35,822 bases of DNA from a virus (IMGVR_UViG_2681813232_000002), one strand, 5' to 3'. Positions 3,757 through 35,822 are shown, numbered from the stretch's first letter. The notes: generated by a model from the letters alone, not told the origin. Made by a program: numbers and translations.

Positions 3757-7437
<3,681 letters not shown>

Positions 7438-16137: not shown

Positions 16138-16463
16138 AAACCTTCCGCTGGAAAGTGAAACCCGGTATGGATGTGGCTTCGGCCCCTTCTGTAAGAAAGG
16201 TGCGCTTTGGTGATGGCTATTCCCAGCGAGCGCCTGCCGGGCTGAATGCCAACCTGAAAACGTACAGCGTGACGCTTTCTGTCCCCCGTGAGGAGGCCAC
16301 GGTACTGGAGTCGTTTCTGGAAGAGCACGGGGGCTGGAAAGCCTTTCTGTGGACGCCGCCTTATGAGTGGCGGCAGATAAAGGTGACCTGCGCAAAATGG
16401 TCGTCGCGGGTCAGTATGCTGCGTGTTGAGTTCAGCGCAGAGTTTGAACAGGTGGTGAACTGA
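16134..16463 (+). CDS. M: Tail tip protein M
   Basis: 109 aa, MKTFRWKVKPGMDVAS...; matches recalled lambda gpM. Confidence 0.95.
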   Translation: MKTFRWKVKPGMDVASAPSVRKVRFGDGYSQRAPAGLNANLKTYSVTLSVPREEATVLESFLEEHGGWKAFLWTPPYEWRQIKVTCAKWSSRVSMLRVEFSAEFEQVVN

Positions 16464-17161: not shown

Positions 17162-17166
17162 ATCCC

Positions 17167-18479: not shown

Positions 18480-18539
18480 TGCAAAATGTTTTATGTGAAA
18501 CCGCCTGCGGGCGGTTTTGTCGTTTATGGAGCGTGAGGA

Positions 18540-21500
18540 ATGGGTAAAGGCAGCAGTAAGGGGCATACCCCGCGCGAAGCGAAGGACAACCTGAAGTCCA
18601 CGCAGCTGCTGAGTGTGATCGATGCCATCAGCGAAGGGCCGGTTGAAGGTCCGGTGGATGGATTAAAAAGCGTGCTGCTGAACAGTACGCCGGTGCTGGA
18701 CAGTGAGGGGAATACCAATATATCCGGCGTCACGGTGGTGTTCCGGGCAGGTGAGCAGGAGCAGTCACCGCCGGAGGGATTTGAATCCTCCGGCTCCGAG
18801 ACGGTGCTGGGTACGGAAGTGAAATATGACACGCCGATCACCCGCACCATTACGTCGGCAAACATTGACCGTCTGCGCTTTACCTTCGGTGTACAGGCAC
18901 TGGTGGAAACCACCTCAAAGGGTGACAGGAATCCGTCGGAAGTCCGTCTGCTGGTTCAGATACAGCGTAATGGTGGCTGGGTGACGGAAAAAGACATCAC
19001 CATTAAGGGCAAAACCACCTCGCAGTATCTGGCCTCGGTGGTGGTGGGTAACCTGCCGCCGCGCCCGTTCAATATACGGATGCGCAGGATGACGCCGGAC
19101 AGCACCACAGACCAGCTGCAGAACAAAACGCTCTGGTCGTCATACACCGAAATCATCGATGTGAAACAGTGCTACCCGAACACGGCACTGGTCGGCGTGC
19201 AGGTGGACTCGGAGCAGTTCGGCAGCCAGCAGGTGAGCCGTAATTATCATCTTCGCGGACGCATTCTGCAGGTGCCGTCGAACTATAACCCGCAGACGCG
19301 GCAATACAGCGGTATCTGGGACGGAACGTTTAAGCCAGCATACAGCAACAACATGGCCTGGTGTCTGTGGGATATGCTGACCCACCCGCGTTACGGCATG
19401 GGTAAACGTCTTGGTGCGGCAGATGTGGATAAATGGGCGCTGTATGTCATCGGCCAGTGTTGCGACCAGTCGGTGCCGGACGGTTTTGGCGGCACGGAGC
19501 CGCGCATCACCTGTAATGCCTGGCTGACCACACAGCGTAAGGTGTGGGATGTTCTCAGTGATTTCTGCTCGGCGATGCGCTGTATGCCGGTATGGAACGG
19601 GCAGACGCTGACGTTCGTGCAGGACCGGCCATCAGATAAGGTGTGGACCTATAACCGCAGTAATGTGGTGATGCCGGATGATGGCGCGCCGTTCCGCTAC
19701 AGCTTCAGCGCCCTGAAGGACCGCCATAATGCCGTTGAGGTGAACTGGATTGACCCGGACAACGGCTGGGAGACGGCGACAGAGCTTGTGGAGGATACGC
19801 AGGCCATTGCCCGTTACGGTCGTAACGTCACGAAGATGGATGCCTTTGGCTGTACCAGCCGGGGGCAGGCACACCGCGCCGGGCTGTGGCTGATTAAAAC
19901 GGAGCTGCTGGAAACGCAGACCGTGGACTTCAGCGTGGGTGCCGAAGGGCTTCGCCATGTACCGGGCGATGTCATTGAAATCTGCGATGATGACTATGCG
20001 GGCATCAGCACCGGTGGGCGCGTGCTGGCGGTGAACAGCCAGACGCGGACACTGACGCTCGACCGTGAAATCACGCTGCCAGCCTCCGGCACCACGCTGA
20101 TAAGCCTGGTTGACGGAAGTGGCAATCCGGTCAGCGTGGAGGTTCAGTCCGTCACCGACGGCGTGAAGGTGAAAGTGAGCCGTGTTCCTGACGGCGTTGC
20201 CGGATACAGCGTGTGGGGGCTGAAGCTGCCGACGCTGCGCCAGCGCCTGTTCCGCTGTGTGAGTATCCGTGAGAACGACGACGGCACGTATGCCATCACC
20301 GCCGTGCAGCATGTGCCGGAAAAAGAGGCCATCGTGGATAACGGAGCGCACTTTGACGGCGACCAGAGCGGCACGGTGAATGGTGTCACGCCGCCAGCAG
20401 TGCAGCATCTGACCGCAGAAGTCACCGCAGACAGCGGGGAATACCAGGTGCTGGCCCGCTGGGACACGCCGAAGGTGGTGAAGGGGGTGAGCTTTATGCT
20501 TCGCCTGACCGTGGCAGCGGATGACGGCAGTGAGCGACTGGTCAGCACGGCCCGGACGACGGAAACCACATACCGCTTCACGCAACTGACGCTGGGAAAC
20601 TACAGGCTGACAGTCCGGGCGGCAAATGCCTGGGGGCAGCAGGGCGATCCGGCATCGGTATCGTTCCGGATTGCCGCACCGGCAGCACCGTCGCGGATTG
20701 AGCTGACGCCGGGCTATTTTCAGATAACCGCAACGCCGCATCTTGCCGTTTATGATTCGACGGTACAGTTTGAGTTCTGGTTCTCGGAAAAGCGGATTGC
20801 GGATATCAGGCAGGTTGAAACCACAGCCCGCTATCTTGGCATGGCGCTGTACTGGATAGCCGCCAGTATCAATATCAAACCGGGCCATGATTATTATTTT
20901 TACGTTCGCAGTGTGAACACCGTTGGCAAATCGGCATTCGTGGAGGCTGTCGGTCAGCCGAGTGATGATGCATCCGGCTATCTGGATTTTTTCAAAGGCG
21001 AGATAGGGAAAACCCATCTGGCTCAGGAGCTGTGGACGCAGATTGATAACGGTCAGCTTGCGCCTGACCTGGCTGAAATCAGGACGTCCATTACGGATGT
21101 CAGCAATGAAATCACGCAGACCGTCAATAAGAAACTGGAAGACCAGAGTGCGGCAATTCAGCAGATACAGAAGGTTCAGGTTGATACAAATAATAACCTG
21201 AACAGCATGTGGGCTGTGAAGCTGCAGCAGATGCAGGACGGACGCCTTTATATCGCGGGTATTGGTGCCGGTATTGAGAACACCCCTGACGGCATGCAGA
21301 GTCAGGTGCTGCTGGCGGCGGACAGGATTGCGATGGTTAATCCTGCGAATGGCAACACAAAACCGATGTTTGTTGGTCAGGGCGATCAGATATTCATGAA
21401 CGACGTGTTCCTGAAACGCCTGACGGCCCCCACCATTACCAGCGGTGGAAATCCACCGGCATTTTCCCTGACACCGGACGGAAAGCTGACCGCTAAAAAT

Positions 21501-22037
21501 GCGGATATCAGTGGCAGTGTGAATGCGAACGCCGGGACGCTCAACAATGTCACGGTAAATGAAAACTGTACGATTAAGGGCATGCTGGAGGCGACTCAGG
21601 TCAGAGGTGACTTCGTTAAAGCTGTATCCAAATCATTTCCGAAACAGGCTGGTACGTGGGGTAACACGGAAACACCAAACGGGACGGTTACAGTCACCAT
21701 CAGCGATGATCATAACTTTGACCGTCAAATCATTATTCCGCCCATTATCTTTAACGGAATAGCGTATAGCGATCCGGGAAGTGGTAATAACCCGGGAGGT
21801 ACAAGATACACGGGTTATGGTTTTGAAGTTCGCAAAAACGGTGTATTAATCGCATCCAGAGAAACTAAAGGGGCCATTCCCGGTAGCTACAGTGCGGTTA
21901 TTGATATGCCGAGTGGCAGGGGAAGCGTCACTCTGGAGTTTAAGGTTTTCCATAAAGGCAATCAGTGGGCAGGTAATATCACCGACTGTACGGTGATTGT
22001 GACCAAAAAAGCTGCTTCCGGCATCAGTATTCGTTGA
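18540..22037 (+). CDS. J: Tail tip / central fibre protein J (host specificity)
   Basis: 1165 aa, [34 protein letters not shown]...; lambda gpJ-like over most of its length, with the C-terminal receptor-binding part diverged (see findings). Confidence 0.95.
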
Positions 22038-22057
22038 AGTTGTTATAACCCATATAA

Positions 22058-22084
22058 GGGCACCAGAAATGGTGCCTTTTTTAT
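22058..22084 (+). terminator. Rho-independent terminator after J
   Basis: GGGCACC-AGAAAT-GGTGCC followed by TTTTTTATT. Confidence 0.6.
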
Positions 22085-22106
22085 TGCAGAAAAGCGAGAG
22101 GTAATT

Positions 22107-22706
22107 ATGCGTAAACTTTATGCCGCCATTTTGTCCGCAGCCATTTGTCTGGCCGTATCCGGTGCGCCTGCATGGGCATCTGAACATCAGTCCACGCTGA
22201 GCGCGGGGTATCTTCATGCCCGGACCAACGTTCCCGGCAGCGATGATCTGAACGGGATTAACGTGAAATACCGTTATGAGTTTACGGACACACTGGGGCT
22301 GGTGACGTCATTCAGCTATGCAGGAGACAAGAATCGCCAGCTTACCCGTTACAGCGATACCCGCTGGCATGAAGATTCCGTTCGTAACCGCTGGTTCAGC
22401 GTAATGGCGGGGCCGTCTGTGCGCGTGAATGAATGGTTCAGCGCGTATGCGATGGCGGGTGTGGCTTACAGCCGTGTGTCGACTTTCTCCGGGGATTATC
22501 TCCGCGTAACTGACAACAAGGGGAAAACGCACGAAGTGCTGACCGGAAGTGATGACGGTCGCCACAGCAACACGTCTCTGGCGTGGGGGGCTGGCGTGCA
22601 GTTTAACCCGACCGAATCCGTGGCCATTGATATTGCTTATGAAGGCTCCGGCAGTGGCGACTGGCGCACTGACGGTTTCATCGTGGGTGTCGGTTATAAA
22701 TTCTGA
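22107..22706 (+). CDS. lom: Lom, outer-membrane beta-barrel protein of the Ail/Lom family
   Basis: 199 aa with signal peptide ([24 protein letters not shown]) and C-terminal ...VGVGYKF; lies after J as in lambda. Confidence 0.9.
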
Positions 22707-22733
22707 TTAGCCAGGTAACACAGTGTTATGACA

Positions 22734-22759
22734 GCCCGCCGGTTCAGGCGGGCTTTTTT
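22734..22759 (+). terminator. Rho-independent terminator after lom
   Basis: GCCCGCC-GGTTCAG-GCGGGC followed by TTTTTT. Confidence 0.65.
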
Positions 22760-22764
22760 GTGAG

Positions 22765-25700
22765 GTGAATATGGCAGTAAAGATTTCAGGTGTACTGAAA
22801 GACGGCGCAGGTAAACCGGTACAGAACTGCACAATCCAGCTGAAAGCAAAACGTAACAGCACCACGGTGGTGGCGAACACGGTGGCCTCAGAAAATCCGG
22901 ATGAAGCCGGGCGTTACAGCATGGACGTTGAGTACGGTCAGTACAGCGTTATTCTGTTGGTGGAAGGATTCCCGCCGTCACATGCCGGGACCATCACCGT
23001 GTATGAAGATTCTCAACCCGGTACGCTGAATGATTTTCTCGGTGCCATGACGGAGGATGATGCCCGTCCGGAGGCACTGCGCCGTTTTGAACTGATGGTG
23101 GAAGAGGTGGCGCGTAACGCGTCCGCAGTGGCGCAGAACACGGCAGCCGCGAAGAAGTCAGCCAGCGATGCCAGCACATCAGCCCGTGAGGCGGCAACCC
23201 GTGCGACTGATGCTGCAGGCTCAGCACGTGCAGCCAGCACGTCAGCCGGACAGGCCGCGTCGTCGGCTCAGTCAGCGTCTTCCAGCGCAGGAACAGCATC
23301 AACAAAGGCCACTGAAGCATCAAAAAGTGCTGCCGCCGCAGAGTCTTCAAAAAGCGCGGCAGCCACCAGTGCAGGTGCAGCGAAAACGTCGGAAATGAAT
23401 GCCGCAGCATCACAAAAATCTGCGGCCACATCTGCATCCACCGCGACCACGAAAGCGTCAGAAGCTGCCACCTCAGCCCGGGATGCGTCGGCTTCAAAAG
23501 TGGCGGCAAAATCATCAGAAACGAGCGCTGCCTCGAGCGCCGGCAGTGCAGCTTCCTCGGCAACGGCGGCAGGAAATTCCGCGAAGGCCGCAAAAACGTC
23601 TGAGACGAATGCGGATAACAGCGCACAGGCGGCAGCAGACTCACAAACTGCATCGGCAAACTCCGCGACAGCAGCCAAAAAATCAGAAACCAACGCGAAA
23701 AATAGTGAGGCAGCAGCAAAGGTCAGCGAAACCAACGCTAAAGCGTCAGAGAACAAGGCGAAAGAATATCTCGACAAGGTCGGGGGACTCGTCAGCCCGA
23801 TGACGCAATACGATTGGCCCGTTGTTACTGGTAATGAGTCTTTTTACATCAAGATCGCGAAACTTTCCGATCCCGGAAGCAACAATTGCCATGTAACGCT
23901 AATGGTTACTAATGCCGGTAACTACGGCTCCCCTTACGGAAACATTGACTTTATCGAGATCTCGGCGCGCGGTCTGCCTTCTTCGCTTACTGCGGATAAT
24001 GTATCCCGTTACCTGAGTATACGCCGCTTAGGGGCAACCGGGCTGACCGATGACAACCAGATGCGTTACGGCCTGGTTAAAGGTGATGGCTTTATTGAGG
24101 TTTGGGCCTTCCAGCGTGCATTTATCAACGGCGCAAAGGTTGCGGTACTGGCGCAGACGGCACGCACGGAATTATACATTCCAGACGGATTTGTTAAGCA
24201 AACCGCCGCGCCTTCTGGATATGTTGAAGGCAACGTTGTAAGGATTTACGACCAGGTAAACAAGCCGACTAAAGCAGATTTGGGTCTTTCTAATGCTATG
24301 CTTACAGGCGCTTTCGGTCTTGGCGGTAGCGGTCTTGTTTTGGATGGTAAAATGACCGATAAGGAACTACTACAAGAGCTAAGGGCGAAAGGTGGGTGTT
24401 TCTGGAGGTCAGGAAAACCAACAGGTAGCGAATCAACAATTTTCAGTCACGGTTCTGGTATATTCTCGCGGTGCGGCGATACGTGGTCAGCTATTAATAT
24501 CGATTACGAAAGCGGTAGAGTAAAGATTTACTCTAGTAACGATAATAGACTCAACAATGGTACTTTTAACATAAATGAGCTATACGGAACCAAATACAAG
24601 CCGTCGAAATCGGATGTTGGACTTAGCAATGTAACGAACGATGCGCAGGTAAAAAAAACCGGCGATATTATGTCAGGTGATCTGTCGATCACTAAAGCAA
24701 CACCTTCACTATACCTGCGTTCAAAAAGTGGAACCGCCCATGTATGGTTCCAAAATGAGGATCAGTCGGAACGCGGCGTTATTTTTGCGCCTACAAATAC
24801 TGATACGCTTGGCGAAGTTCACATCAGGGCTAAAAACGCAAAAGGTCAATCAAGTGGTGATTTTATTGTTCGTCACGACGGGATGGTAGAAGCCCTTAAT
24901 CTAAAAGTAACGAGAAAAATCAATGGAGCCACCGCAGAATTTGCAAACACAAGCACTAACTCCGATGATACCACGGTAAATATCAAAGGATCACAGCATA
25001 CGCCTTTGGTTTTAACGCGCAACAACACAATTAAAAACTTATCCATTGGGTTTAAGGTTGATGATGTTGATCAAAAATACCTGGGTATAGCTGGCGACGG
25101 TGATTTATATTTTGGTAGTTATTCTGACCACACAAAAAACAGCAAAGTGATCACACAAGCAAAACTAGATAGCGGGTTAACGGTAGGAGGTAAAACAACC
25201 TTTTCTGACCTTGCTACATTCAACGCAGGTATATCTGGAGCAATTGAACCTGAAAACATTTCTTCAGAGACTGTCGATCTTAATAATCTGACCATAAAAG
25301 ACACAGATAAAGGATCAGTTAAATACTATCAATGCAGAACTGCCGGAGGTGGTGCAAATATTACCAATAAGCCTGACGGCGTAGGCGGCAACTTTTTGCT
25401 TCGTGTAGAGTCAATTCGTAAGGTTAGTGATTCAGATTATATAAACATGCAAACGCTGATTAGCGGCGACAAAGGACGCGTGTATGTTCGTTTTGTTACT
25501 AATGGTAATTTTACAGCATGGAGCGAGCATGTTGTTTCAGGATGGAATCAGGATGTGACCGTCAGGTCGTTAACCTCGACGACTCCATCAAAATTAGGTG
25601 GCGGGCGGATTGATGTGCTTGGAAGTACGTCAGATTATGGCGAGATGAATTGTACTGTGCGTGGTGTTGATAGCACTGGAACTAATTCGGCGTGGTCTGT

Positions 25701-26529
25701 AGGTACATCAGAAAGCACAGGAAAAATGTTGTACCTGAAAAACCACAGAAGCAGCGCTCAAGTGCTGTTAAATGGCGATGATGGCGCGGTGCAACTACTA
25801 AGCGGTACTGTCAACGGTGCTACAGCACAGGCGCTAACCATCAACAAAGATGAGGTTAACTCAACTGTTAATTTAACCCTTACAAAACAATCAGGGACTG
25901 GCAATCGTTTTGTTTTACAGAACGCAGGTAATGCAGAACTACCGTTTTTTGTCAGTGTGTGGGGTTCCAGTACTCGACAAAACGTTCTTGAGGTTGGAAC
26001 GTCTGCTGCGTATCTGTTTTATGCGCAAAGAACGCCAGCAGGCCAGTTGTTTGATGTAAATGGCGCTATTAATTGCACAACGCTGAATCAGTCATCAGAC
26101 CGCGACCTTAAAGACGATATTCTCGTTATCAGCGACGCGACGAAAGCAATCCGTAAAATGAACGGATACACCTACACGCTCAGGGAAAACGGGATGCCTT
26201 ATGCTGGCGTTATTGCACAGGAAGTAATGGAGGCGATACCAGAAGCTGTGGGATCGTTTACTCATTACGGTGAAGAGTTGCAGGGACCAACGGTTGACGG
26301 CAACGAGCTACGCGAAGAAACGCGCTATCTTAATGTTGACTACGCCGCCGTGACGGGTTTACTTGTTCAGGTCGCCCGTGAAACAGATGATCGCGTTACC
26401 GCGCTGGAAGAGGAAAACACAACGCTACGTCAAAATCTGGCAACAGCAGGCACCCGGATCAGCACTCTGGAAAATCAGGTAAGCGAACTGGTTGCACTTG
26501 TCCGGCAGTTAACAGGAAGCGAACATTGA
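22765..26529 (+). CDS. stf: Side tail fibre protein (Stf-like), chimeric: lambda-Stf-like N-terminus, divergent distal region, C-terminal intramolecular-chaperone (peptidase S74-like) domain
   Basis: 1254 aa. N-terminus MAVKISGVLKDGAGKPVQNCTIQLKAKRNSTTV... matches recalled lambda Stf. Ala/Ser-rich repeat region follows. C-terminus has an S-D-R-D-L-K-D-D-I motif followed by a coiled-coil (LEEENTTLRQNL...LENQVSELVALVRQL). Confidence 0.9.
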   Translation: MNMAVKISGVLKDGAGKPVQNCTIQLKAKRNSTTVVANTVASENPDEAGRYSMDVEYGQYSVILLVEGFPPSHAGTITVYEDSQPGTLNDFLGAMTEDDARPEALRRFELMVEEVARNASAVAQNTAAAKKSASDASTSAREAATRATDAAGSARAASTSAGQAASSAQSASSSAGTASTKATEASKSAAAAESSKSAAATSAGAAKTSEMNAAASQKSAATSASTATTKASEAATSARDASASKVAAKSSETSAASSAGSAASSATAAGNSAKAAKTSETNADNSAQAAADSQTASANSATAAKKSETNAKNSEAAAKVSETNAKASENKAKEYLDKVGGLVSPMTQYDWPVVTGNESFYIKIAKLSDPGSNNCHVTLMVTNAGNYGSPYGNIDFIEISARGLPSSLTADNVSRYLSIRRLGATGLTDDNQMRYGLVKGDGFIEVWAFQRAFINGAKVAVLAQTARTELYIPDGFVKQTAAPSGYVEGNVVRIYDQVNKPTKADLGLSNAMLTGAFGLGGSGLVLDGKMTDKELLQELRAKGGCFWRSGKPTGSESTIFSHGSGIFSRCGDTWSAINIDYESGRVKIYSSNDNRLNNGTFNINELYGTKYKPSKSDVGLSNVTNDAQVKKTGDIMSGDLSITKATPSLYLRSKSGTAHVWFQNEDQSERGVIFAPTNTDTLGEVHIRAKNAKGQSSGDFIVRHDGMVEALNLKVTRKINGATAEFANTSTNSDDTTVNIKGSQHTPLVLTRNNTIKNLSIGFKVDDVDQKYLGIAGDGDLYFGSYSDHTKNSKVITQAKLDSGLTVGGKTTFSDLATFNAGISGAIEPENISSETVDLNNLTIKDTDKGSVKYYQCRTAGGGANITNKPDGVGGNFLLRVESIRKVSDSDYINMQTLISGDKGRVYVRFVTNGNFTAWSEHVVSGWNQDVTVRSLTSTTPSKLGGGRIDVLGSTSDYGEMNCTVRGVDSTGTNSAWSVGTSESTGKMLYLKNHRSSAQVLLNGDDGAVQLLSGTVNGATAQALTINKDEVNSTVNLTLTKQSGTGNRFVLQNAGNAELPFFVSVWGSSTRQNVLEVGTSAAYLFYAQRTPAGQLFDVNGAINCTTLNQSSDRDLKDDILVISDATKAIRKMNGYTYTLRENGMPYAGVIAQEVMEAIPEAVGSFTHYGEELQGPTVDGNELREETRYLNVDYAAVTGLLVQVARETDDRVTALEEENTTLRQNLATAGTRISTLENQVSELVALVRQLTGSEH
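23095..23760 (+). repeat. Low-complexity Ala/Ser/Thr-rich repeat region inside stf (GCx/TCx/ACx codon repeats)
   Basis: Protein segment ...SASDASTSAREAATRATDAAGSARAASTSAGQAASSAQSASSSAG... repeated over about 220 aa; it generates the many spurious overlapping ORFs on both strands here. Confidence 0.7.
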
Positions 26530-26712
26530 TATCCTTCAAGCTCTGAAGGAGGCTGTTCCCGGTACGTTCAGACTGTTGTTGAGCTGGAAATCGCAACGGA
26601 GGAAGAGAAAGCGTTACTGGCCGCATGGAAAAAGTATCGGGTGTTGCTGAACCGTGTTGATACATCAACTGCACCTGATATTGAGTGGCCGGAAGAACCA
26701 GACACAATGTAA
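26530..26712 (+). pseudogene. Remnant 3' end of a tail-fibre assembly (tfa) gene, no start codon
   Basis: Directly after the stf stop the same frame stays open for 60 codons, ending ...[45 protein letters not shown], the conserved C-terminal signature of Tfa proteins as I recall it. No ATG or SD. Confidence 0.45.
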
Positions 26713-27246
26713 GCGAAAAAGAAAAACCGCAGACACGACGTATGCAGGACGTGCTGCGGTTGGCTGGTGAACTTCCGATAGTGCGAGTATTGAATGATTT
26801 CAAGCTGTTATCGATTTTACGTATTTTTGTATGAGAGGATTTCCACCACCTCCCACCGACCATCTAAGACTTTATGCCACTGTCCCTAGGACTGCTATGT
26901 ACTAGGAGCGGATGTTAAACTCAGACTCGTTTCAGCTACATTGCGTTTTGAATAATATTCCATCATAATAACTCTTTGAAAAATGTGATCTTTTCATTTA
27001 TAACACTGATGACTTGCTTATCTCATTGGGATATCGGAGGAGAATACTTAACTATGACAAGCCCGATTATTATGACACTGGCTATATTATATAGATTGAT
27101 ATTAAAATGTAGGATTAGGTTCTTGCCAAGGTGTCAAGATTTACAGATAGGTTTAAAACCATATAAATATGTTTTACGGTGAGATACAATACATATTGTA
27201 AGGCATAAACGCTTGGTAAAATTTTAATTATTGGAAGAAGCTAATC

Positions 27247-30200
27247 ATGGAACCCATATCAATTACAGTGGCAACTTATGTAGCAACTAAACTTATTGAT
27301 CAATTCATCTCTCAAGAAGGATATGGTTGTATTAAGAAAGCATTATTCCCCCAAAAAAGATATGTGGATAGATTATATCAACTAATTGAAGAGACGGCAA
27401 TTGAGTTTGAAGAAACATATCCAGTAGAAAGTGGAGCAATACCATTTTATCATTCCGAACCATTGTTTGAGATGTTGAATGAGCACATCTTTTTTAAAGA
27501 GTTCCCTGACAAAGAGATATTATTAGACAAGTTCAAAGAATATCCAAGTATCACTCCCCCAACTCAACAACAACTCAGCCTTTTTTATGAGATGTTATCA
27601 TTAAAAATCAATAATTGTTCGAAGTTAAAAAAGCTACATATCGAAGAAACGTATAAAGAAAAAATATTCGATATTAATGAAGAGCTCATTCAAGTCAAAC
27701 TTATTTTACGGTCTATAGATGAGAAACTAACTTTTCACTTAAGTGATGGTTGGTTAAATGAAAAAAATAGTCAAGCAATAGCTGACTTGGGAGGTCGATA
27801 CACACCCGAACTCAACGTAAAGCTAGAAATAGCAGAGATATTTGATGGCCTCGGTAGAACTAATGATTTTTCTAAAATATTTTATTCGCATATAGATAGC
27901 TTTCTGGTCGCTGGAAAGAAATTACATAGTTGCGATGTAATTTCCTCAGAATTATTTGAAATAAACCAGTCCTTAAAAGAAATTTCTGATATATATCAGG
28001 AGATTAATTTTTCTAAATTAGATGAAATCCCTATAAATAAATTTAATAACTATGTTTCTAGCTGCCAGACAGCTATTGGCGGAGCGGTATCAATATTGTG
28101 GGAACTCCGAGAAAAGTCAGAGCAAGTAGGTGAAACCAAGCATTACAGTGATAAGTATTCATCTACTCTGCGAATGCTTCGGGAATTTGACTATGCGTGC
28201 AATGAATTACGTATATTCATTAATTCAACAACAGTGAAGTTGGCTAACAACCCATTCTTACTTCTCGAAGGAAAAGCAGGAATTGGTAAGTCTCATTTAC
28301 TGGCTGATGTGATTAAAAATCGAATTGCTTCTGGGTATCCTTCACTACTCATACTAGGGCAACAACTTACTTCAGATGAATCTCCATGGTCACAAATCTT
28401 CAAGAGATTACAGCTTAAAATCACTTCTCGTGAATTCCTAGAAAAACTGAATTTATATGGCAAAAAAACAGGAAAAAGAGTCTTAGTTTTTATTGATGCT
28501 ATTAATGAAGGTAATGGAAATAAATTCTGGAATGACAATATTAACAGTTTTGTCGATGAAATCAGATGCTTTGAATGGCTTGGTCTGATAATGTCAGTCA
28601 GAACAACATATAGAAATGTAACAATTTCACATGAGAATGTTGTGCGAAATAATTTTGAAATTCATGAACATATTGGATTCCAGAACGTTGAGTTGGAAGC
28701 GGTTAGTCTATTTTATGATTATTACAATATTGAGAGGCCTTCATCTCCTAACCTTAATCCAGAGTTTAAAAATCCTCTATTTCTTAAGTTATTGTGTGAA
28801 GGCATTAAGAAAAATGGTTTAACCAAAGTGCCTGTTGGATTTAATGGGATTTCAAATATTTTTAACTTTTTAGTTGAAGGGGTAAATAAATCATTAGCAT
28901 CGCCAAAAAAATATGCATTCGATCCCAGTTTTCCTCTTGTTAAAGATGCTCTCAATGAAATCATAAAATTCAAATTAGAGATTGGTCGTAATAGTATTTC
29001 ACTTAAAGATGCTCACTCAGTGGTTCAATCTGTAGTTAATGATTATGTTGCTGATAAAACCTTCCTCAGCGCCTTGATTGACGAAGGATTATTGACTAAA
29101 GGCATAGTGAGAAATGATGATAATTCTACTGAGGAAGTAGTTTATGTGGCTTTTGAAAGGTTTGATGATCATTTAACTGTTAATTTTTTATTAAATGATG
29201 TTGAAAATATCGAAAGTGAATTTAAGCCTGATGGTCGTCTGAAAAAATATTTTCATGATGAATGTGATTTTTATATAAAATCGGGAATAGTAGAGGCGTT
29301 GTCTATTCAATTGCCAGAAAGGTATGAAAAAGAGCTTTATGAATTTCTGCCGGAGTTCAGCAATAATCTTAAATTACTAGAAGCCTTTATTGATAGCTTG
29401 ATATGGCGCGATATTAAGGCTATTGATTTCGAAAAAATTAGACCTTTCATCAATGAACATGTTTTTAAATTTAAAGATAGTTTTGATCATTTCCTCGAGG
29501 CAGTGATCTCTATTTCAGGTTTAGTTGGCCATCCCTTTAATGCTAATTTCTTGCATGATTGGCTAAAAGATTATTCTTTGGCAAATCGAGATTCGTTTTG
29601 GACTACAGAACTTAAATATAAATATAGTGAAGACTCAGCATTTAGGCATCTAATCGATTGGGCATGGGCCAGAACAGATAAAAGCTTTGTTTCGGATGAG
29701 TCAATCGAGCTAGTTGCAACTAGTTTATGCTGGTTTTTAACTTCTAGTAACCGAGAACTTCGAGATTGCTCAACTAAGGCTTTAGTGAGTTTACTCGAGC
29801 CAAGAATTCCTGTATTGAGAAAAATAATTGATAAGTTTTATGGTGTAAATGATCCTTACGTTTGGGAAAGAATATTTGCAGTTGCATTAGGCTGTACATT
29901 GCGAACTGATAATATTAAAGAACTAAAATATTTAGCCGAAACTGTTTACCAAAAGGTATTTTGTTCTAAGTATGTGTATCCAAATATATTACTTAGAGAT
30001 TATGCTAGAGAGATTATTGAATTTGCTAATCATCTTGGATTGGAACTTGAAAGCATTGAATTATCCAAGACTAGACCACCCTACAACAGCATTTGGCCTG
30101 ACAAGATTCCTTCAAAAGAGGAACTAGAGTCCCTTTATGATAAAGAACCTTATCGGGAACTCTGGAGCTCTATTATGGAAGATGGTGACTTTTCACGATA

Positions 30201-31701
30201 TACTATTGGAACAAATTATAATCATTCTGATTGGTCTGGTTGCAAGTTTAATGAAACCCCTGTTGACCGTAAGCAAGTTTTTAAAACTTTCAAATGTAAA
30301 CTAACTGATCAACAAAAAGACTTGTATGATGCCACAGATCCTTTCATTTATGATGATAAATGCGAAGGAATTAAATTTGGTCGTGTGGTCGGTAGAAAAG
30401 CACAGGAAGAAATAAAGGCGAGCAAGAAATTATTTAAGAATTCATTGTCATACGATCTGTTAAGTGAGTTTGAAAATGAAATAGAGCCATACCTGGATCA
30501 TAATAATAATCTGCTGGAAACTGATAAACACTTTGATCTTCGACTAGCTCAACAATTTATATTCAATCGTGTTATAGAGCTTGGTTGGGATCCGGAGAAG
30601 CATGGTAATTTTGACCAACAAATAGGAACTGGACGTGGACGTAGAGAGGCATTCCAAGAACGGATTGGTAAAAAATACCAATGGATTGCTTATTATGAAT
30701 ACATGGCAAGGCTAGCCGATAATTTTACTCGTTTTGAAGGTTATGGTGACGAACGAAAGGAAAATCCATACCAAGGGCCATGGGAGCCTTACGTAAGAGA
30801 TATAGATCCCACTATCTTACTTAAAGAAACTGGAACGAAAAAAATAAGCAATAAAGAAATGTGGTGGCTTAATGATGAAGTGTTTGATTGGACTTGCTCT
30901 AATGAAGACTGGGTTAAAAGTTCTACTACTATAACTAATTCATATGCTTTTATTGAAGTTAAAGATGATAATGGTGATGAATGGATAGTATTAGAAAGTC
31001 ATCCATCATGGAAAGAACCAAAAATTATTGGAAACGATGATTGGGGGCACCCACGAAAAGAGGTTTGGTATCAGATCAGAAGTTATATCGTTAAAGTTGA
31101 AGAATTTGAAAATTTTAGATGTTGGGCAATAGCTCAAGACTTTATGGGCAGGTGGATGCCGGAATGTACTGATAGATACCAATTATTTAATAGGGAGTAC
31201 TATTGGTCCGAAGCATTTAAGTCTTTTAAATCAGATTATTATGGTGGATCTGACTGGACTTCGGTAACAGACCGGGAGTCTGGAGCTAAGATAGCTGATG
31301 TTAGTGTCACTTCGATTAATTATTTGTGGGAAGAGGAGTTCGACAAATCAAAAATAGAAACTTTGAATTTTTTGAAGCCTAGTAACTTAATCTTTGAAAA
31401 GATGGGATTAAAAAGTGGGGAAGTAGAGGGTAGCTTCAATGATGAAAATGGAACTATGGTTTGCTTTGCAGCTGAAGCTGTATATGCTTCAAAGCCGCAT
31501 CTACTTGTTAAAAAAGAACCATTTTTAACAATGTTAAGGGACAATGGTTTTGAAATCGTTTGGACATTATTAGGTGAAAAGGGCGTTATAGGGGGCTCAC
31601 TCATATCAAGTCATCATTATGGTCGACAGGAGTTTAGTGGAGCATTTTATTATGAAGACAGTCAGCTAACAGGAAGTCATAAAACTAGCTTTACGAGATA
31701 A
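27247..31701 (+). CDS. Large P-loop NTPase (STAND/NACHT-like Walker A and B), 1484 aa; candidate single-gene anti-phage defence protein
   Basis: Strong SD (GGAAGAAG) 7 nt upstream of the ATG. Walker A FLLLEGKAGIGKSHLLADV (about residue 335); Walker B RVLVFIDAINEG (about residue 410). Visibly AT-rich compared with the flanking phage genes. Sits in the b-region position between the tail fibre and attR. Confidence 0.85.
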   Translation: MEPISITVATYVATKLIDQFISQEGYGCIKKALFPQKRYVDRLYQLIEETAIEFEETYPVESGAIPFYHSEPLFEMLNEHIFFKEFPDKEILLDKFKEYPSITPPTQQQLSLFYEMLSLKINNCSKLKKLHIEETYKEKIFDINEELIQVKLILRSIDEKLTFHLSDGWLNEKNSQAIADLGGRYTPELNVKLEIAEIFDGLGRTNDFSKIFYSHIDSFLVAGKKLHSCDVISSELFEINQSLKEISDIYQEINFSKLDEIPINKFNNYVSSCQTAIGGAVSILWELREKSEQVGETKHYSDKYSSTLRMLREFDYACNELRIFINSTTVKLANNPFLLLEGKAGIGKSHLLADVIKNRIASGYPSLLILGQQLTSDESPWSQIFKRLQLKITSREFLEKLNLYGKKTGKRVLVFIDAINEGNGNKFWNDNINSFVDEIRCFEWLGLIMSVRTTYRNVTISHENVVRNNFEIHEHIGFQNVELEAVSLFYDYYNIERPSSPNLNPEFKNPLFLKLLCEGIKKNGLTKVPVGFNGISNIFNFLVEGVNKSLASPKKYAFDPSFPLVKDALNEIIKFKLEIGRNSISLKDAHSVVQSVVNDYVADKTFLSALIDEGLLTKGIVRNDDNSTEEVVYVAFERFDDHLTVNFLLNDVENIESEFKPDGRLKKYFHDECDFYIKSGIVEALSIQLPERYEKELYEFLPEFSNNLKLLEAFIDSLIWRDIKAIDFEKIRPFINEHVFKFKDSFDHFLEAVISISGLVGHPFNANFLHDWLKDYSLANRDSFWTTELKYKYSEDSAFRHLIDWAWARTDKSFVSDESIELVATSLCWFLTSSNRELRDCSTKALVSLLEPRIPVLRKIIDKFYGVNDPYVWERIFAVALGCTLRTDNIKELKYLAETVYQKVFCSKYVYPNILLRDYAREIIEFANHLGLELESIELSKTRPPYNSIWPDKIPSKEELESLYDKEPYRELWSSIMEDGDFSRYTIGTNYNHSDWSGCKFNETPVDRKQVFKTFKCKLTDQQKDLYDATDPFIYDDKCEGIKFGRVVGRKAQEEIKASKKLFKNSLSYDLLSEFENEIEPYLDHNNNLLETDKHFDLRLAQQFIFNRVIELGWDPEKHGNFDQQIGTGRGRREAFQERIGKKYQWIAYYEYMARLADNFTRFEGYGDERKENPYQGPWEPYVRDIDPTILLKETGTKKISNKEMWWLNDEVFDWTCSNEDWVKSSTTITNSYAFIEVKDDNGDEWIVLESHPSWKEPKIIGNDDWGHPRKEVWYQIRSYIVKVEEFENFRCWAIAQDFMGRWMPECTDRYQLFNREYYWSEAFKSFKSDYYGGSDWTSVTDRESGAKIADVSVTSINYLWEEEFDKSKIETLNFLKPSNLIFEKMGLKSGEVEGSFNDENGTMVCFAAEAVYASKPHLLVKKEPFLTMLRDNGFEIVWTLLGEKGVIGGSLISSHHYGRQEFSGAFYYEDSQLTGSHKTSFTR

Positions 31702-31802
31702 AAATGAATCTCAGAGCTGAATATATAAGTAGTATTAGAAACCGGGTTATACTTAAGAAATCAATCTTAAGTGTGGCAGTCGAATGGTAGCTAATATGCT
31801 AG

Positions 31803-31838
31803 CGGCGCTAATGCCTGTTTGTTGCTCATAACAGGCAT
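31803..31838 (+). terminator. Possible hairpin terminator downstream of the large NTPase gene
   Basis: AATGCCTGTT-TGTTGCTCAT-AACAGGCATT inverted repeat followed by a T-containing tract; weak. Confidence 0.3.
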
Positions 31839-32084
31839 TCACTTTAGTTATGGCAGAAAAGTATACATGCTGGGTTGGGAAAGTGTGAAAGAAAGGAAGA
31901 TTGCTGCGCCGTTTGTCGTCACGTTTATCTTCATTGGCTATGCAAGTCGTAATAAAAGGTGGGACAAAACTGAGACACATAAAGCCTCGCAATGGCTTGC
32001 AAGGCTTTACATGTTTTGATGTGGTGGGATGTGTGAGCGCAGTGTTGATGGGGTAATGCTTTGAATTAGAAGCGGATTCTTATA

Positions 32085-32130
32085 ATTCGTAATGCGAAGG
32101 TCGTAGGTTCGACTCCTATTATCGGCACCA
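32085..32130 (+). repeat. 46-bp copy of the 3' end of tRNA-Thr(CGU) (thrW-type), ending in CCA; att core duplicate (probable prophage attR), not a functional tRNA
   Basis: ATTCGTAATGCGAAGGTCGTAGGTTCGACTCCTATTATCGGCACCA matches the anticodon-loop to 3' end of E. coli tRNA-Thr(CGU) as recalled. The D-arm and 5' acceptor strand are absent upstream. Confidence 0.8.
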
Positions 32131-32294
32131 TCACCTAGTTTTCCCAAGTCAACCCACATCAACAAAATCATTTAAAAACATATATATTACGTTGTTTTCA
32201 TACGTTTGAGGTCAACCCTTGTCTCTTGAAATCAACACGCGGTTGGGGGCACAATCAGGGGCATGTTCTGTTCGATCTAGGAAATGTGCCCCCA

Positions 32295-33485
32295 ATGATG
32301 CTGAATGCCCGCAAGGTTGAAGCTGCGAAAGGAAAAGAGAAGAGCTACAAGCTGTTTGATGGAGGTGGCCTATACCTTCAGGTCGAACCTAATGGCTCGC
32401 GTTACTGGCGTATGAAATACCGTTTTGCTGGTAAAGAGAAACGATTGTCCTTTGGTGTTTATCCAACAGTCACACTTGCTGATGCCAGACAAAAACGAGA
32501 AGACGCGAAGAAACTACTCGCAGCAGGTGAAGATCCCGGCGAAGTCAAAAAAGCCAAAAAGCAGGCTTTAAATGCAGCGAGTGAGACACTTAACCCATTC
32601 AGAGAAGTGGCGTTAGAGTGGCACAAAATGAAATCACCCAAATGGTCTGAGGGCTATGCTTCCGACATCATTGAGGCATTCGAGAAAGACATTTTCCCGC
32701 ATATTGGGCACAGACCTATAGCTGATATTCAGCCCCTTGAACTGCTTGAAGTTCTGAGGTTGATAGAAGCTCGAGGCGCTATGGAGAAAGCGAAGAAAGT
32801 CCGTCAGCGATGCGGTGAAGTTTTTCGCTATGCCATCGTAACGGGTAGGGCAATCTACAATCCGGCACCGGATCTTGCCAGTGCGATGCAAGGACATGAA
32901 GCAGTCCACTATCCATTCCTCAAAGCCAACGAACTACCGGAGTTCTTTAATGCCCTTAATTCTTATTCAGGAAGTCCAATTGTATTGTTGGGGGCGCATT
33001 TACTTATCCTGACAGGTCTACGAACTGGAGAACTACGAGCAGGTGAGTGGCGAGAGGTGGATTTTGATAATGCGGTGTGGGAGATCCCAAAAGAACGTAT
33101 GAAAATGCGTAGGAGCCATATTGTCCCGTTGTCAAAACAAGCATTATCCCATCTCAAAAGTTTGAAAGAACTAACTGGGAACTACCCGCTGATGTTCCCT
33201 GGACGCAACGATCCCAGCAAATTTATGAGTGAAGCAAGCATTAATCAGGTGTTTAAACGTATTGGATATGCAGGGCGTGTTACGGGGCATGGTTTCAGGC
33301 ATACGATGAGTACAATCCTACATGAGAAAGGATTTAACAGCGCTTGGATTGAAACCCAGCTTGCTCATTCGGACAAAAACTCTATTCGTGGAATTTATAA
33401 CCATGCCCAATATCTCGAAGGGAGAAGAGAAATGATGCAATGGTATGCTAATTATTTATCTGAGCAAATTGGTACTCATAAATGA
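32295..33485 (+). CDS. int: Tyrosine recombinase/integrase, P4-like (genomic-island type)
   Basis: MMLNARKVEAAKGKEKSYKLFDGGGLYLQVEPNGSRYWRMKYRFAGKEKRLSFGVYPTVTLADAR... is the typical P4-type N-terminal arm-binding domain. C-terminal catalytic region has R...HGFRHT...Y-like motifs. The ORF track starts at 32226 but there is no ATG before 32295. Confidence 0.9.
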   Translation: MMLNARKVEAAKGKEKSYKLFDGGGLYLQVEPNGSRYWRMKYRFAGKEKRLSFGVYPTVTLADARQKREDAKKLLAAGEDPGEVKKAKKQALNAASETLNPFREVALEWHKMKSPKWSEGYASDIIEAFEKDIFPHIGHRPIADIQPLELLEVLRLIEARGAMEKAKKVRQRCGEVFRYAIVTGRAIYNPAPDLASAMQGHEAVHYPFLKANELPEFFNALNSYSGSPIVLLGAHLLILTGLRTGELRAGEWREVDFDNAVWEIPKERMKMRRSHIVPLSKQALSHLKSLKELTGNYPLMFPGRNDPSKFMSEASINQVFKRIGYAGRVTGHGFRHTMSTILHEKGFNSAWIETQLAHSDKNSIRGIYNHAQYLEGRREMMQWYANYLSEQIGTHK

Positions 33486-34306
33486 ATATTTTAAAAATTA
33501 ATAATACTGATTCTCTGCTCAGAGATTACTACCAGTTGGATGAAGCTTCAGAAAAAATTGGTTGTAGTGAAAAGGATATACTCTGGTTTGCCAGAGAACG
33601 AGATGTAGAGCTATGCATGGAATTCCATGATGATGAGTATGATGTTTCATGTGGTTTGAAGATTGATGGTCAAATAGATGAGTTCTTATCTAATCTGAAA
33701 TATTTACCACGAGATAGAAATGGCAATATTATGTTGTCAGACTTAAGTTCTATAAGAATCCCTGATGAAGATAATTTAATTGATAAAAATGGTTTTATTC
33801 GATGCTTCATATCCGGTTTATGGGCTGTTGATTATGAATATAAAGATCTGTTAGTTAAGCATGAGGGGCAACCGGATTCCTGGCCTATTCATTTTCTACT
33901 GGCGGGTACGCCTAATATAAATTGTAAGGTAATTCTTTATGTAAATTATGATGAAAAAGAAAATTATTATCTTTTTGAGGTTTTGTGGATTACAAAGGTA
34001 CAGATTCAAAAATTCATTGATATAGTCTTATGCGAACAAAAGCGGATAAAAAACGCCAATAAATATAAATCACAATCTGAGGCGCAAAAACAAAAACATG
34101 CTGTTCCTCGAGCTGAAATACTCATGGCTATTATTTCGCTCTATCATCGTGATATGAGGCTAAGAAGAGAGAGTCCAGCAGCGATAGCTGATTATCTTTT
34201 TCAACATGCCAGTGAGTTCTGGCCTAAGACCGGAGAACCGCCTTTGAGCTATGATACTGTTGTTAGTTTGCTACGTAGTTGCATGAAAAACATTAAGTTT
34301 AACTAA
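33482..34306 (+). CDS. Hypothetical protein, AT-rich, translationally coupled to the integrase (ATGA overlap)
   Basis: 274-aa ORF with markedly AT-rich codon usage; no family recognised. Confidence 0.7.
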   Translation: MNILKINNTDSLLRDYYQLDEASEKIGCSEKDILWFARERDVELCMEFHDDEYDVSCGLKIDGQIDEFLSNLKYLPRDRNGNIMLSDLSSIRIPDEDNLIDKNGFIRCFISGLWAVDYEYKDLLVKHEGQPDSWPIHFLLAGTPNINCKVILYVNYDEKENYYLFEVLWITKVQIQKFIDIVLCEQKRIKNANKYKSQSEAQKQKHAVPRAEILMAIISLYHRDMRLRRESPAAIADYLFQHASEFWPKTGEPPLSYDTVVSLLRSCMKNIKFN

Positions 34307-34431
34307 ATATTAACAATTGTTGTGGCTAATGATTTTGAATTTTTTTCATTAGTCACATTTTTCTCATTTATAACCTATGTTTTAATTTTCCGTGTTGAAG
34401 CCAATAGACTTAGATAAACGGAGAATGATGA

Positions 34432-34722
34432 ATGTTATCTAAACATGATAATACTACTTTGCAACGACCTTCAATGGATTCTCTGATCGATATGAAGTTT
34501 ATTACTTCCGATTGTTTATTAAGTGATAAATGGATTTATCGATTGATTTCTCTGAATCGCTTTCCAAAACCTATAAAAATAGGTCGGATGTCACGATGGC
34601 GCGCTGCTGATTATTATAAGTGGCGAGATGGGTTTGAAGAAAACTCAGGTCAACAGTTTGAGGGGATGAGAAATAAGGCAAGAGCAATTAATAAAGGGAA
34701 TAGATTATCACCTACTCCCTAA
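34432..34722 (+). CDS. alpA: AlpA-family (phage_AlpA) helix-turn-helix regulator / excisionase-like protein
   Basis: Segment DMKFITSDCLLSDKWIYRLISLNRFPKPIKIGRMSRWRAADYYKWRD fits the AlpA pattern (HTH, FPKP.K.G, W..E...W). Start codon uncertain (34432, 34474 or 34492). Confidence 0.6.
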   Translation: MLSKHDNTTLQRPSMDSLIDMKFITSDCLLSDKWIYRLISLNRFPKPIKIGRMSRWRAADYYKWRDGFEENSGQQFEGMRNKARAINKGNRLSPTP

Positions 34723-34754
34723 GCCTTAATTGATAGTTAGTAATATTTAACTGA

Positions 34755-34929
34755 TTAGCCTTTAGGGTCAATCCCGCGTGATTGGAGTTCTTTGCGTAAA
34801 ATTCTTTTAATCCAAGTTGCCAACGCGCTATCTCCATCTTTGCGCATTTCGTTTTCGAGTTGCAACCTAAAATCGTCGGTAAGACGCATTTGGAATGGTG
34901 GAGAACGTTTCTCTTGTGGTGTTGACATG
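34755..34929 (-). pseudogene. Arc-like ribbon-helix-helix repressor gene, apparently disrupted by a 1-nt frameshift
   Basis: From ATG (34929) the frame reads MSTPQEKRSPPFQMRLTDDFRLQ then shifts. The -1 frame continues LENEMRKDGDSALATWIKRILRKELQSRGIDPKG to a TAA. The joined sequence has an Arc-like strand-helix-helix pattern. Shift is at a T-run near 34860-34862. Confidence 0.35.
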
Positions 34930-34951
34930 GTAATTACCCTAGAATATGATG
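34923..34951 (+). promoter_or_regulatory. Candidate sigma70 promoter: TTGACA, 17-nt spacer, TATGAT, reading rightward
   Basis: TTGACA at 34923-34928, 17-nt spacer, TATGAT at 34946-34951; near-consensus hexamers. Confidence 0.5.
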
Positions 34952-34967
34952 ACTACATGGTAATTAC
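34930..34967 (+). promoter_or_regulatory. Two copies of the perfect 10-bp palindrome GGTAATTACC flanking the -10 (candidate operators)
   Basis: ACATGGTAATTACC occurs at 34926-34939 and 34954-34967; the palindrome cores are 28 bp apart centre to centre. Confidence 0.45.
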
Positions 34968-35059
34968 CATTGTAAGTATAGTTCGCTTGTAAAAGCAATG
35001 CCCGATTGTGCGGGAACACAAATCGGGCATTTAACCAACCGTTATAAGAGGTAACGAAG

Positions 35060-35236
35060 ATGGCTAAACAGAAGTGTACCTGGTTATTTGCGGCGATCAA
35101 CCGCAGTCAACGCAATGCCCGTCCTGTGATGTTAAGGATCACCGCAGATAACGAGCGGTCAGCGCGGCGCAGACTTGCCCCGGACTATGTACTGAGCTTT
35201 GCCGGGCGCATTCCCTGCGGAGGTGAACATGCGTAA
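35060..35236 (+). CDS. Small ORF (58 aa), hypothetical; first gene downstream of the candidate promoter
   Basis: SD GAGG 7-8 nt upstream of the ATG (MAKQKCTWLFAAINRSQRNARPVMLRITADNERSARRRLAPDYVLSFAGRIPCGGEHA). Its stop overlaps the next start. Below the ORF-track cutoff. Confidence 0.4.
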   Translation: MAKQKCTWLFAAINRSQRNARPVMLRITADNERSARRRLAPDYVLSFAGRIPCGGEHA

Positions 35237-35588
35237 TTATCCGCATCCCGGCGAACGCTGGCAGCATGAACGTGGCTGGACGGTCACGATTATCCGATTA
35301 ATAGAAGCCTCGCCCTCTGTGGCGCTGGTTAATCCTGAATTCAGCTGTGAAGTGCTGATACGTCATGACAGCGACAACCAGCTTTCTTCCTGCCCTCTGG
35401 CATGGTTTGAACAGCGATATACGCGCCTGTTTGATGTACCGCTCTTTAAGCCTGCACCAGCTCCTGCAGGCGGTAGTGGTTCCGGCCCGCTGACACTGCA
35501 TCCGTCTGTGCTATTTATCCGCTGGCGGGAGCGTAGCATATGGCGTTCTGCTGAGCCTGATGACGGTCACTATTCAAAGTTTCTCTGA
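35229..35588 (+). CDS. Hypothetical protein (119 aa)
   Basis: Strong SD GGAGGTG just upstream of ATG 35229 (MRNYPHPGERWQHERGWTVTII...). The ORF track starts at 35199 but the internal start has the better RBS. Confidence 0.55.
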   Translation: MRNYPHPGERWQHERGWTVTIIRLIEASPSVALVNPEFSCEVLIRHDSDNQLSSCPLAWFEQRYTRLFDVPLFKPAPAPAGGSGSGPLTLHPSVLFIRWRERSIWRSAEPDDGHYSKFL

Positions 35589-35618
35589 CACAATACCGCT
35601 GAAAACGGAGTAATCCAC

Positions 35619-35822
35619 GATGAATATTTCAAACGGGCACAACGGTGCTCAGGGCCACACTTTGCCTGAAAAACACAATACCGGTGTTTTTGCCTATGGG
35701 TTGTCAGAGGACCGTTTCGGAAAGCTGACCCGCGCAAGAAATGCCTGCGACATGCTCCAGCTTCTCTTTTCTGAATACCCGTCTCAGGCCGGAGCACTGG
35801 ACACTGGCTGTGCGCATGGTGT
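35619..35822 (+). CDS. Hypothetical protein, 3'-truncated by the window edge
   Basis: ATG at 35619 (MNISNGHNGAQGHTLPEKHNTGVFAYGLSEDRFGKL...); frame open to the end of the window. Confidence 0.45.

Follow-up and report, generated by a model that had tools for sequence, protein, structure and literature searches.

How does a P4-like satellite keep its replication genes silent when the RNA elements that do so in P4 are absent from the corresponding place? P4 is the textbook mobile element with purely RNA-based immunity. The slot between its vis gene (ORF88) and its Icd-like/epsilon/alpha operon contains P_LE, an IsrK-like seqA element, and the C4-type CI RNA, and early termination of transcripts in the slot brings about immunity (PMC3632133). 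In published surveys, P4-like satellites are recognized as a family through int, alpA, epsilon, alpha, sid, psu, and delta, with the upkeep of repression left undiscussed (PMC8628076). The question is raised here by a stretch of viral DNA of 35,822 nucleotides (IMGVR_UViG_2681813232_000002; the window), in which a small minus-strand gene occupies the equivalent slot. An earlier note on this DNA, made from the sequence alone, described the gene as a frameshifted Arc-like repressor beside a strong promoter with two palindromic operators. The analysis presented below finds the gene intact and indicates that it is probably part of an immunity cassette, which maintains repression in a P4-like satellite prophage. 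As a switch, the cassette would be ordinary, an autoregulated ribbon-helix-helix (RHH) repressor with its operators. What is new is its setting and its packaging of a protein with an antisense RNA in an undescribed module.

Neither the protein, nor the cassette, nor the RNA was found to be described in the searchable literature. Two published candidates were set aside. The gene reported as prevalent in the satellite family yet absent from P4 (PMC8628076) is a different one, encoding 75 aa between epsilon and alpha, and the repressor in the paper on the PICI EcCIMP1 is PerC/ANR-like and unrelated.

The gene order in the window is integrase, a 274-aa ORF, an AlpA/Vis-like gene, the repressor gene on the opposite strand, and an Icd-like gene. 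The AlpA/Vis-like gene (34432-34722, plus strand) encodes a helix-turn-helix protein (Pfam Phage_AlpA, 20.6 bits against a cut-off of 21; PHROG 66), is convergent with the repressor gene, and is the positional equivalent of P4 ORF88 (vis). The Icd-like gene (35060-35236, plus strand; 58 aa) is the first early gene and matches NCBIfam NF033153 at 84 bits (cut-off 25), with a Shine-Dalgarno sequence, AGAGG, at about 35046-35050. Beyond it, genomes that are 100% identical over the window’s last 1423 bases continue with two small ORFs, DUF5375, alpha primase, sid, psu, delta, and a DRT3 defence hotspot. Because alpha, sid, psu, and delta lie past the end of the window, they are ascribed to its strain only through these genomes. 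With int, alpA, alpha, sid, psu, and delta in the conserved order, the locus is, by gene content, a P4-like satellite prophage. The DNA upstream of the satellite, at about 14000-33500, contains the tail genes of a lambdoid prophage (tape measure, gpJ, and tail fibres) and an Avs2 (AVAST type 2) gene, so the satellite integrase adjoins prophage and defence DNA. No tRNA gene or tRNA integration site was found in the window.

The RNA elements of canonical P4 immunity are missing from the leader. Rfam searches recover C4 (74.9 bits) and isrK (60.8 bits) from P4 as a positive control, but neither gives a match at E ≤1 in 34300-35822 or at the gathering threshold in the window or in a complete satellite of this type (L001). 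A C4/CI or IsrK RNA in the leader was rejected on this basis. P4, for its part, has no homologue of the 57-aa protein encoded in the window’s slot. In a minority of satellites, the cassette thus appears, from gene content and searches, to stand in place of the RNA-only immunity of P4.

The repressor gene (34755-34928, minus strand) is a single unbroken frame of 57 codons that runs from an ATG at 34928 to a stop at 34757-34755, both in the ORF listing and by direct translation (MSTPQEKRSPPFQMRLTDDFRLQLENEMRKDGDSALATWIKRILRKELQSRGIDPKG). The earlier note rightly saw a minus-strand ORF with an Arc-like N-terminus (...PPFQMRLTDDFRLQ...) ending at the stop codon at 34755-34757. It also recognized the ATG but placed it at 34929. 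With both gene ends right, it lost the frame in between. The extra T and -1 shift that it located in a T-run at 34860-34862 do not exist: these bases are TTG, the minus-strand codon CAA for Gln23, and the frame passes straight through them. Because the gene is intact, the proposals built on the shift, an inactivated repressor with a derepressed operon or a sequencing error, are wrong. Frameshifted alleles do arise, as an NCBI-sourced protein of 71 aa from another genome (P0085) illustrates. In that allele, a 1-nt deletion in the Asn27 codon switches translation into an overlapping frame (...KKCAKMEIARWQLGLKEFY...), which in the window is the ORF at 34712-34837 (minus strand). The window does not carry it, and its uninterrupted frame equals an intact RefSeq CDS whose product occurs widely. 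The probability that the gene is frameshifted, as a pseudogene or through a sequencing error, with a derepressed early operon, is therefore negligible.

The RefSeq CDS is annotated as a “hypothetical protein” (WP_001605077.1) in the genomes identical to the end of the window. Comparison with orthologous loci, which the earlier note had called for, shows the 331-bp cassette in 66 of 5426 complete E. coli genomes, with the CDS annotated in every one. The exact 57-aa protein is found on at least 1000 contigs and is always labelled hypothetical. Compared with 12 orthologues, the gene shows dN/dS values of 0.08-0.19 wherever dS is unsaturated, which indicates purifying selection, and its differences by codon position 3/1/2 number 2370/1025/499. 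For annotation, a would-be pseudogene call is corrected, and a protein known only as hypothetical acquires a function-level hypothesis, as do its distant relatives in the uncharacterised YlcI/YnfO family.

The protein belongs to a compact family, with 44 representatives among 1.84 billion proteins. Nearly all homologues are 54-62 aa long, and they come from Enterobacterales, Pasteurellaceae, Orbaceae (Gilliamella), and Oceanisphaera/Oceanimonas. No curated Pfam or NCBIfam model reaches its threshold on the window protein. Neither Pfam Arc (PF03869) nor NCBIfam YlcI/YnfO (NF041551, HMM threshold ≥30 bits) matches it at E ≤1, so it is filed in neither family. Among relatives, however, weak matches recur to Pfam Arc, RHH_1, RHH_5, RHH_10, and HicB. 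Pfam Arc is found below threshold in 13 of 38 relatives (best E 1.5e-4), and two further branches reach 20.7 and 19.7 bits with NF041551. For the window protein, PHROG 228 (“Arc-like repressor”) gives E 0.003. Further weak matches are to the solved RHH proteins HP0222 and VapB26, at E 0.3-0.8, and to P22 Arc, which hhalign aligns at 46% probability with the strand and helix A in register. Searches of the PDB with phmmer and hmmsearch returned only spurious designed-repeat matches and marginal RHH matches, and a direct family assignment of the window protein was rejected.

Predicted structural features agree with these matches. The predicted monomer has an N-terminal strand followed by two helices and can be superposed on solved RHH proteins. 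The predicted recognition strand spans residues ~9-16 (SPPFQMRL), and helix A (18-31) and helix B (36-50) are separated by the turn Gly32-Asp33-Ser34. This turn fits the RHH pattern G-x-[S/T/N], and within the family Gly32 is invariant and Asp33 nearly so. In the strand, polar residues alternate, with Pro/Gln11-Gln13-Arg15 aligning with Arc Gln9-Asn11-Arg13. Because the weak matches, the Gly32-x-Ser34 turn, and the alternating strand residues agree, we accept a ribbon-helix-helix (Arc/MetJ) fold as the predicted structure of the 57-aa protein. That it acts as a dimer on a palindromic site is suggested indirectly, by the palindromes beside the gene and by the co-variation of protein and operator described below.

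The start of the gene overlaps a promoter on the plus strand. P_early (34922-34950) consists of the -35 hexamer TTGACA (34922-34927), a 17-bp spacer, and the -10 hexamer TATGAT (34945-34950). It matches the consensus at 11 of 12 positions, the best promoter match in the region by consensus scan, and its -35 element overlaps repressor codons 1-3. Its transcripts would start near A34957. The 10-bp palindrome GGTAATTACC occurs as an exact copy only at 34929-34938 and 34959-34968 in the 35.8 kb, where 0.74 copies per window are expected by chance at up to one mismatch. Both copies are part of a 14-nt direct repeat, ACATGGTAATTACC, with a spacing of 30 bp, and at the right-hand copy the perfect palindrome extends over 14 bp, ATGGTAATTACCAT (34957-34970). 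The putative operator O1 (34927-34940), built around the first copy, lies in the P_early spacer and abuts the repressor start codon. The putative operator O2 (34957-34970), built around the second, covers approximately +1 to +14 of P_early. It is also directly downstream of the -10 element of the repressor’s own promoter, P_rhh (34969-34998, minus strand; -10 TACAAT 34974-34969, -35 TTGCTT 34998-34993, 18-bp spacer). P_rhh matches the consensus at only 8 of 12 positions in the window, under the scanner’s threshold. Across loci, however, a TAnnnT hexamer ends at O2 or 1 nt into it in 29 of 34 cases, compared with at most five at any other offset. A terminator-like hairpin with a T-run, detected by consensus scan only, follows the repressor gene on its 3′ side (34695-34720, minus strand) and overlaps the last codons of the convergent alpA/vis-like gene. 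Because the T-run is on the minus strand only, rightward alpA transcription is probably not stopped there.

Conservation of this layout was assessed in 63 related loci (53 non-redundant) from Enterobacterales, Pasteurellaceae, Orbaceae, and Aeromonadales. Of the 53 non-redundant loci, 48 have a perfect TTGACA across the repressor start codon, although synonymous sites are otherwise saturated; the start-codon context ATGTCAA produces this hexamer on the opposite strand. The -10 element lies 17-18 bp further on, the promoter spacer contains one operator directly next to the start codon, and the centres of O1 and O2 are 30-31 bp apart in 36 of 53 loci (34 bp in one clade).

The operators fall into four specificity classes, in which both copies change together and in step with the recognition strand of the protein. 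RSP[PQ][FY]QMR is associated with GGTnnnTACC, RSPQFPMR with GGTATATACC, KTDQYQ[ILM]R with TGTAATTACA, and GNPPFQFR with GTGTAATTACAC. Such joint change is the signature of a cognate repressor-operator pair and is the main evidence, comparative in kind, that the protein would bind these sites. Roughly three to four independent specificity switches are represented; the covariation counts would imply more, because the loci share ancestry. Residues and bases do not correspond strictly, since in a Pasteurella element, Pmp8, the protein is of class A but one site is GGTATATACC. In Pantoea allii and P. ananatis (L057 and L058), repressor homologues of the KTDQYQIR class occur without recognisable palindromic operators; the antisense RNA is missing as well, and the -35 hexamer at the start codon is imperfect (TTGTCA). 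These copies may be decayed or re-purposed.

Exchange of the cassette between satellites provides a further view of the pairing. In three loci (L060-L062) and in E. coli L068 (2175-2369), the early operon is 98-100% identical to that of the window, but the repressor in the slot is only 52-54% identical and the operators differ. The breakpoint lies at the Icd-like ribosome-binding site. In another E. coli locus, L067 (2113-2298), the slot is occupied by a true YlcI/YnfO-family protein (65.7 bits) with three TGAATCGCAC direct repeats. Repressor and operators thus swap together as a module before an otherwise identical operon. At least three small repressors alternate in front of the identical Icd-like/alpha operon: the window type, the GTGTAATTACAC type, whose repressor is annotated as “YlcI/YnfO family,” and the L067 type. 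About 270 of the 333 E. coli genomes with the window’s early operon carry some other cassette. In E. coli alone, at least three repressor/operator sets are found in the slot, and heteroimmunity in lambdoid phages is defined by such a pattern. Together, the predicted fold, the conserved layout, the co-variation, and these module swaps strongly support the central proposal of the earlier note, an autoregulated Arc-like repressor with two operators on a strong rightward promoter. Its description of that promoter as near-consensus sigma70 overlapping the repressor start, with two perfect 10-bp palindromes at its flanks, also holds.

Although the earlier note found the switch, it missed the P4-like satellite immunity context and a candidate cis-antisense RNA that lies just beyond the region it described. 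This RNA, of ~75 nt (34991-35065, minus strand), is perfectly complementary to the 5′ UTR, Shine-Dalgarno sequence, and start codon of the first early gene, and is retained with all three alternative repressor types. Hairpin 1 (35064-35034) contains the complement of the Icd-like start codon and Shine-Dalgarno sequence, with an anti-SD CCUC in its loop. Hairpin 2 (35031-34997) is GC-rich and sequence-variable and, with the U-tract that follows it (UUGCUUUU), forms a putative intrinsic terminator. The U-tract is interrupted, and a simple terminator scan missed this terminator. The -35 element of P_rhh falls within this U-tract.

The two-hairpin fold is backed by covariation. In an alignment of 38 sequences, 93.8% of cells form a standard pair, compared with 34-50% when partners are slid by 1-3 columns. 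Compensatory change is seen in 14 of 23 pairs, the covariation score is 0.33 against a control of 0.04-0.09, and none of 500 shuffles reaches the observed values. G.U outnumbers A.C by 92 to 11 on the repressor strand, an asymmetry that fixes the strand of the RNA as judged from the alignment. Because the repressor strand is also the more stable fold in 40 of 40 loci, the structure appears to be selected in an RNA read toward the repressor gene.

The putative RNA promoter, P_as (35073-35100, minus strand; -35 TTGATC 35100-35095, 16-bp spacer, -10 TACACT 35078-35073), sits inside codons 5-14 of the Icd-like gene and is weak in the window, with 8 of 12 consensus positions. Its position is nevertheless highly constrained. 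Of 38 non-redundant loci, 37 have a TAnnnT hexamer at a distance of exactly 7 nt upstream of AGCCAU, against at most eight at any other offset, and it is conserved despite differences in the overlapped first-gene product, which may be an Icd-like protein, a primase fusion, or an unrelated 113-119-aa protein. A covariance model built on the RNA gives 77 bits for the window and 58.6 bits for Pmp8, which was outside the training set. Of the 63 loci, 58 have a match to it beside the repressor gene, and L067 and L068 have one as well; it finds no match in P4, and the RNA is absent from the homologous loci L047, L057, and L058. Rfam has no family for the candidate, which therefore defines one absent from that database. 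Its sole Rfam signal is SymR (RF01809) at 31.6 bits (35065-34994, minus strand), and membership was rejected because this is far under the gathering score of 61. In five Photorhabdus loci (L023, L024, L026, L027, and L028), two copies of the RNA lie ~1.2 kb apart on the same strand, at about 2636-2723 and 3853-3939, the upstream copy scoring higher (84 versus 66-69 bits). This suggests tandem or duplicated cassettes.

These elements, with three promoters within about 180 bp, can be combined into a working model. In the lysogen, a repressor dimer would bind both palindromes, filling the P_early spacer at O1 and covering the start site at O2. RNA polymerase would therefore be blocked, and the early operon, from the Icd-like gene to the alpha primase/replicase, would stay off. 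Since O2 lies between the -10 element and the start of the weak P_rhh, the protein would also limit its own synthesis. The ~75-nt RNA, transcribed from within the first early gene toward the repressor gene, would pair with early transcripts that escape repression, blocking Icd-like translation and, through polarity, the downstream genes. It would thus form a second, post-transcriptional lock at the entry point of the operon. Because the U-tract of its terminator doubles as the -35 element of P_rhh, read-through would feed repressor synthesis. Exchange of the repressor, the operators, and the RNA terminator hairpin as a unit would create heteroimmunity classes. As a speculation, induction may resemble that of P4, with helper-activated transcription from upstream of alpA crossing the repressor gene into the early operon.

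Other assignments of these parts have to be weighed against this model. The palindromes could be bound by another factor, such as the AlpA/Vis-like protein or a helper-phage or host regulator, and the small protein could be an antitoxin, an excision cofactor, or an activator. RHH proteins do serve as antitoxins and accessory factors, and some sources label relatives “HicB family.” This assignment is nonetheless very improbable: operator class tracks the recognition strand of the small protein, the two swap together before an identical operon, an AlpA homologue of the window type is near only 15 of 63 loci, and no toxin gene adjoins the repressor gene. For the hairpins, a role in the sense strand as a 5′-UTR structure or attenuator, or as a bidirectional terminator or insulator, would dispense with a discrete antisense RNA. 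Watson-Crick covariation is strand-neutral, the sense strand of the window folds almost as well as the repressor strand (-31.9 versus -33.8 kcal/mol), and P4 immunity itself uses premature termination in this region (PMC3632133). However, the G.U excess and the uniformly greater stability both favour the repressor strand, the U-tract follows the hairpin on that strand only, and a -10 hexamer is held 7 nt upstream within divergent coding sequence. A sense-strand function without an antisense RNA is accordingly regarded as quite unlikely.

The candidate RNA and the Icd-like gene might alternatively form a type I toxin-antitoxin pair like SymR/SymE, in which the RNA mainly neutralises a toxic division inhibitor. 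Both P1 Icd and the kil region of P4 are toxic, the SymR/SymE geometry is shared, and the SymR model gives its sub-threshold signal here. That signal is far below 61 bits, however, and the same RNA and initiation region precede first genes that are not Icd-like, namely the Xenorhabdus primase fusion and the Pectobacterium 113-119-aa protein. Because the RNA also precedes such genes, control of the operon entry point is argued for, and toxin neutralisation as the main role is unlikely. The two roles are compatible and not mutually exclusive.

Among known systems, the immunity cassette is closest in kind to a few that combine an RHH protein or a short RNA with control of an operon, above all P22 immI and the CopG/RNA II control of pMV158. 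By sequence and comparative analysis, it shows the layout of P22 immI, with a predicted RHH repressor, putative divergent overlapping promoters, and a candidate cis-antisense RNA over the downstream ribosome-binding site. P22 immI (Mnt and Arc repressors, divergent Pant/Pmnt, and sar antisense RNA) has two repressors instead of one, and a single 21-bp Arc or 17-bp Mnt operator instead of two 10-14-bp palindromes 30 bp apart. Its sar RNA targets an internal junction, whereas the candidate RNA targets the first gene of the operon. Moreover, no antirepressor gene was identified here, the host element is a satellite, and sequence similarity to P22 Arc is marginal (Pfam Arc below threshold). With canonical P4, the cassette shares the slot between vis/alpA and the Icd-like/epsilon/alpha operon, an RNA component, and presumably the task of silencing the replication operon in the lysogen. 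P4, in contrast, lacks a protein repressor, and its CI RNA, which arises by processing of the sense transcript, acts on termination.

In plasmid pMV158, the RHH protein CopG represses a promoter and antisense RNA II covers the repB translation initiation region. The likeness lies in dual control of a replication-initiator operon by an RHH protein and a short terminator-ended antisense RNA, and P4-type elements can also replicate as plasmids. Unlike the window’s repressor gene, copG is co-transcribed with repB and not divergent from it. CopG also binds a single pseudo-symmetric element and has no detectable sequence relationship to the 57-aa repressor beyond the fold. As in SymR/SymE, the candidate RNA would start opposite codon 2, span the Shine-Dalgarno sequence and 5′ UTR, and have its promoter inside the target coding region; the target here does not resemble SymE, and the RNA forms part of a repressor/operator cassette. 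The YlcI/YnfO family of E. coli prophage proteins (NF041551) has no function described in the searchable literature. Its member in L067 occupies the same slot, with the same operon and RNA, and hhalign aligns 45 columns of that family with the repressor family in the same strand-helix-helix register. The L067 type has three direct repeats where the window type has palindromes.

For P4-like satellites, these findings mean that in some of them a protein repressor and an antisense RNA appear to take the place of RNA-only immunity. It is more tentatively proposed, as a reading on which opinion may fairly lean the other way, that the cassette is portable, that a subset of P4-like satellites, as well as capsid-forming PICI-like elements such as Pmp8, use it as a functional replacement for IsrK/C4 RNA immunity, that its classes define heteroimmunity groups, and that it supplies the “missing” maintenance repressor of Gram-negative satellites. 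Pasteurella phage Pmp8 (OR544139; L066) carries the repressor, operators, antisense RNA, and an Icd-like fusion annotated as “transcriptional repressor” at 4313-5183. Since this 15-kb element encodes a capsid, a portal, and a terminase of its own, it looks like a capsid-forming PICI. The Rfam int-alpA RNA, absent from the window, is present in it at 7939-8004.

Early genes next to the cassette show further variation. In Xenorhabdus (L005, L013-L015, L018, and L025), the first early gene encodes an Icd-like N-terminus (MADTQHNQTRPKFT...) followed by a zinc-finger primase motif (CPVCGGTDRFHF). The gene appears to result from a fusion or deletion through which the cassette gains direct control of the primase. 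The label “transcriptional repressor” is attached to Icd-like proteins not only in Pmp8 but also in PHROG 1743/6928 and in the P4 record (NC_001609, 8168-8584). The immunity factor of P4 is an RNA and not a protein. The label is likely misleading and is apparently a legacy of the old protein-coding annotation of P4 “cI.”
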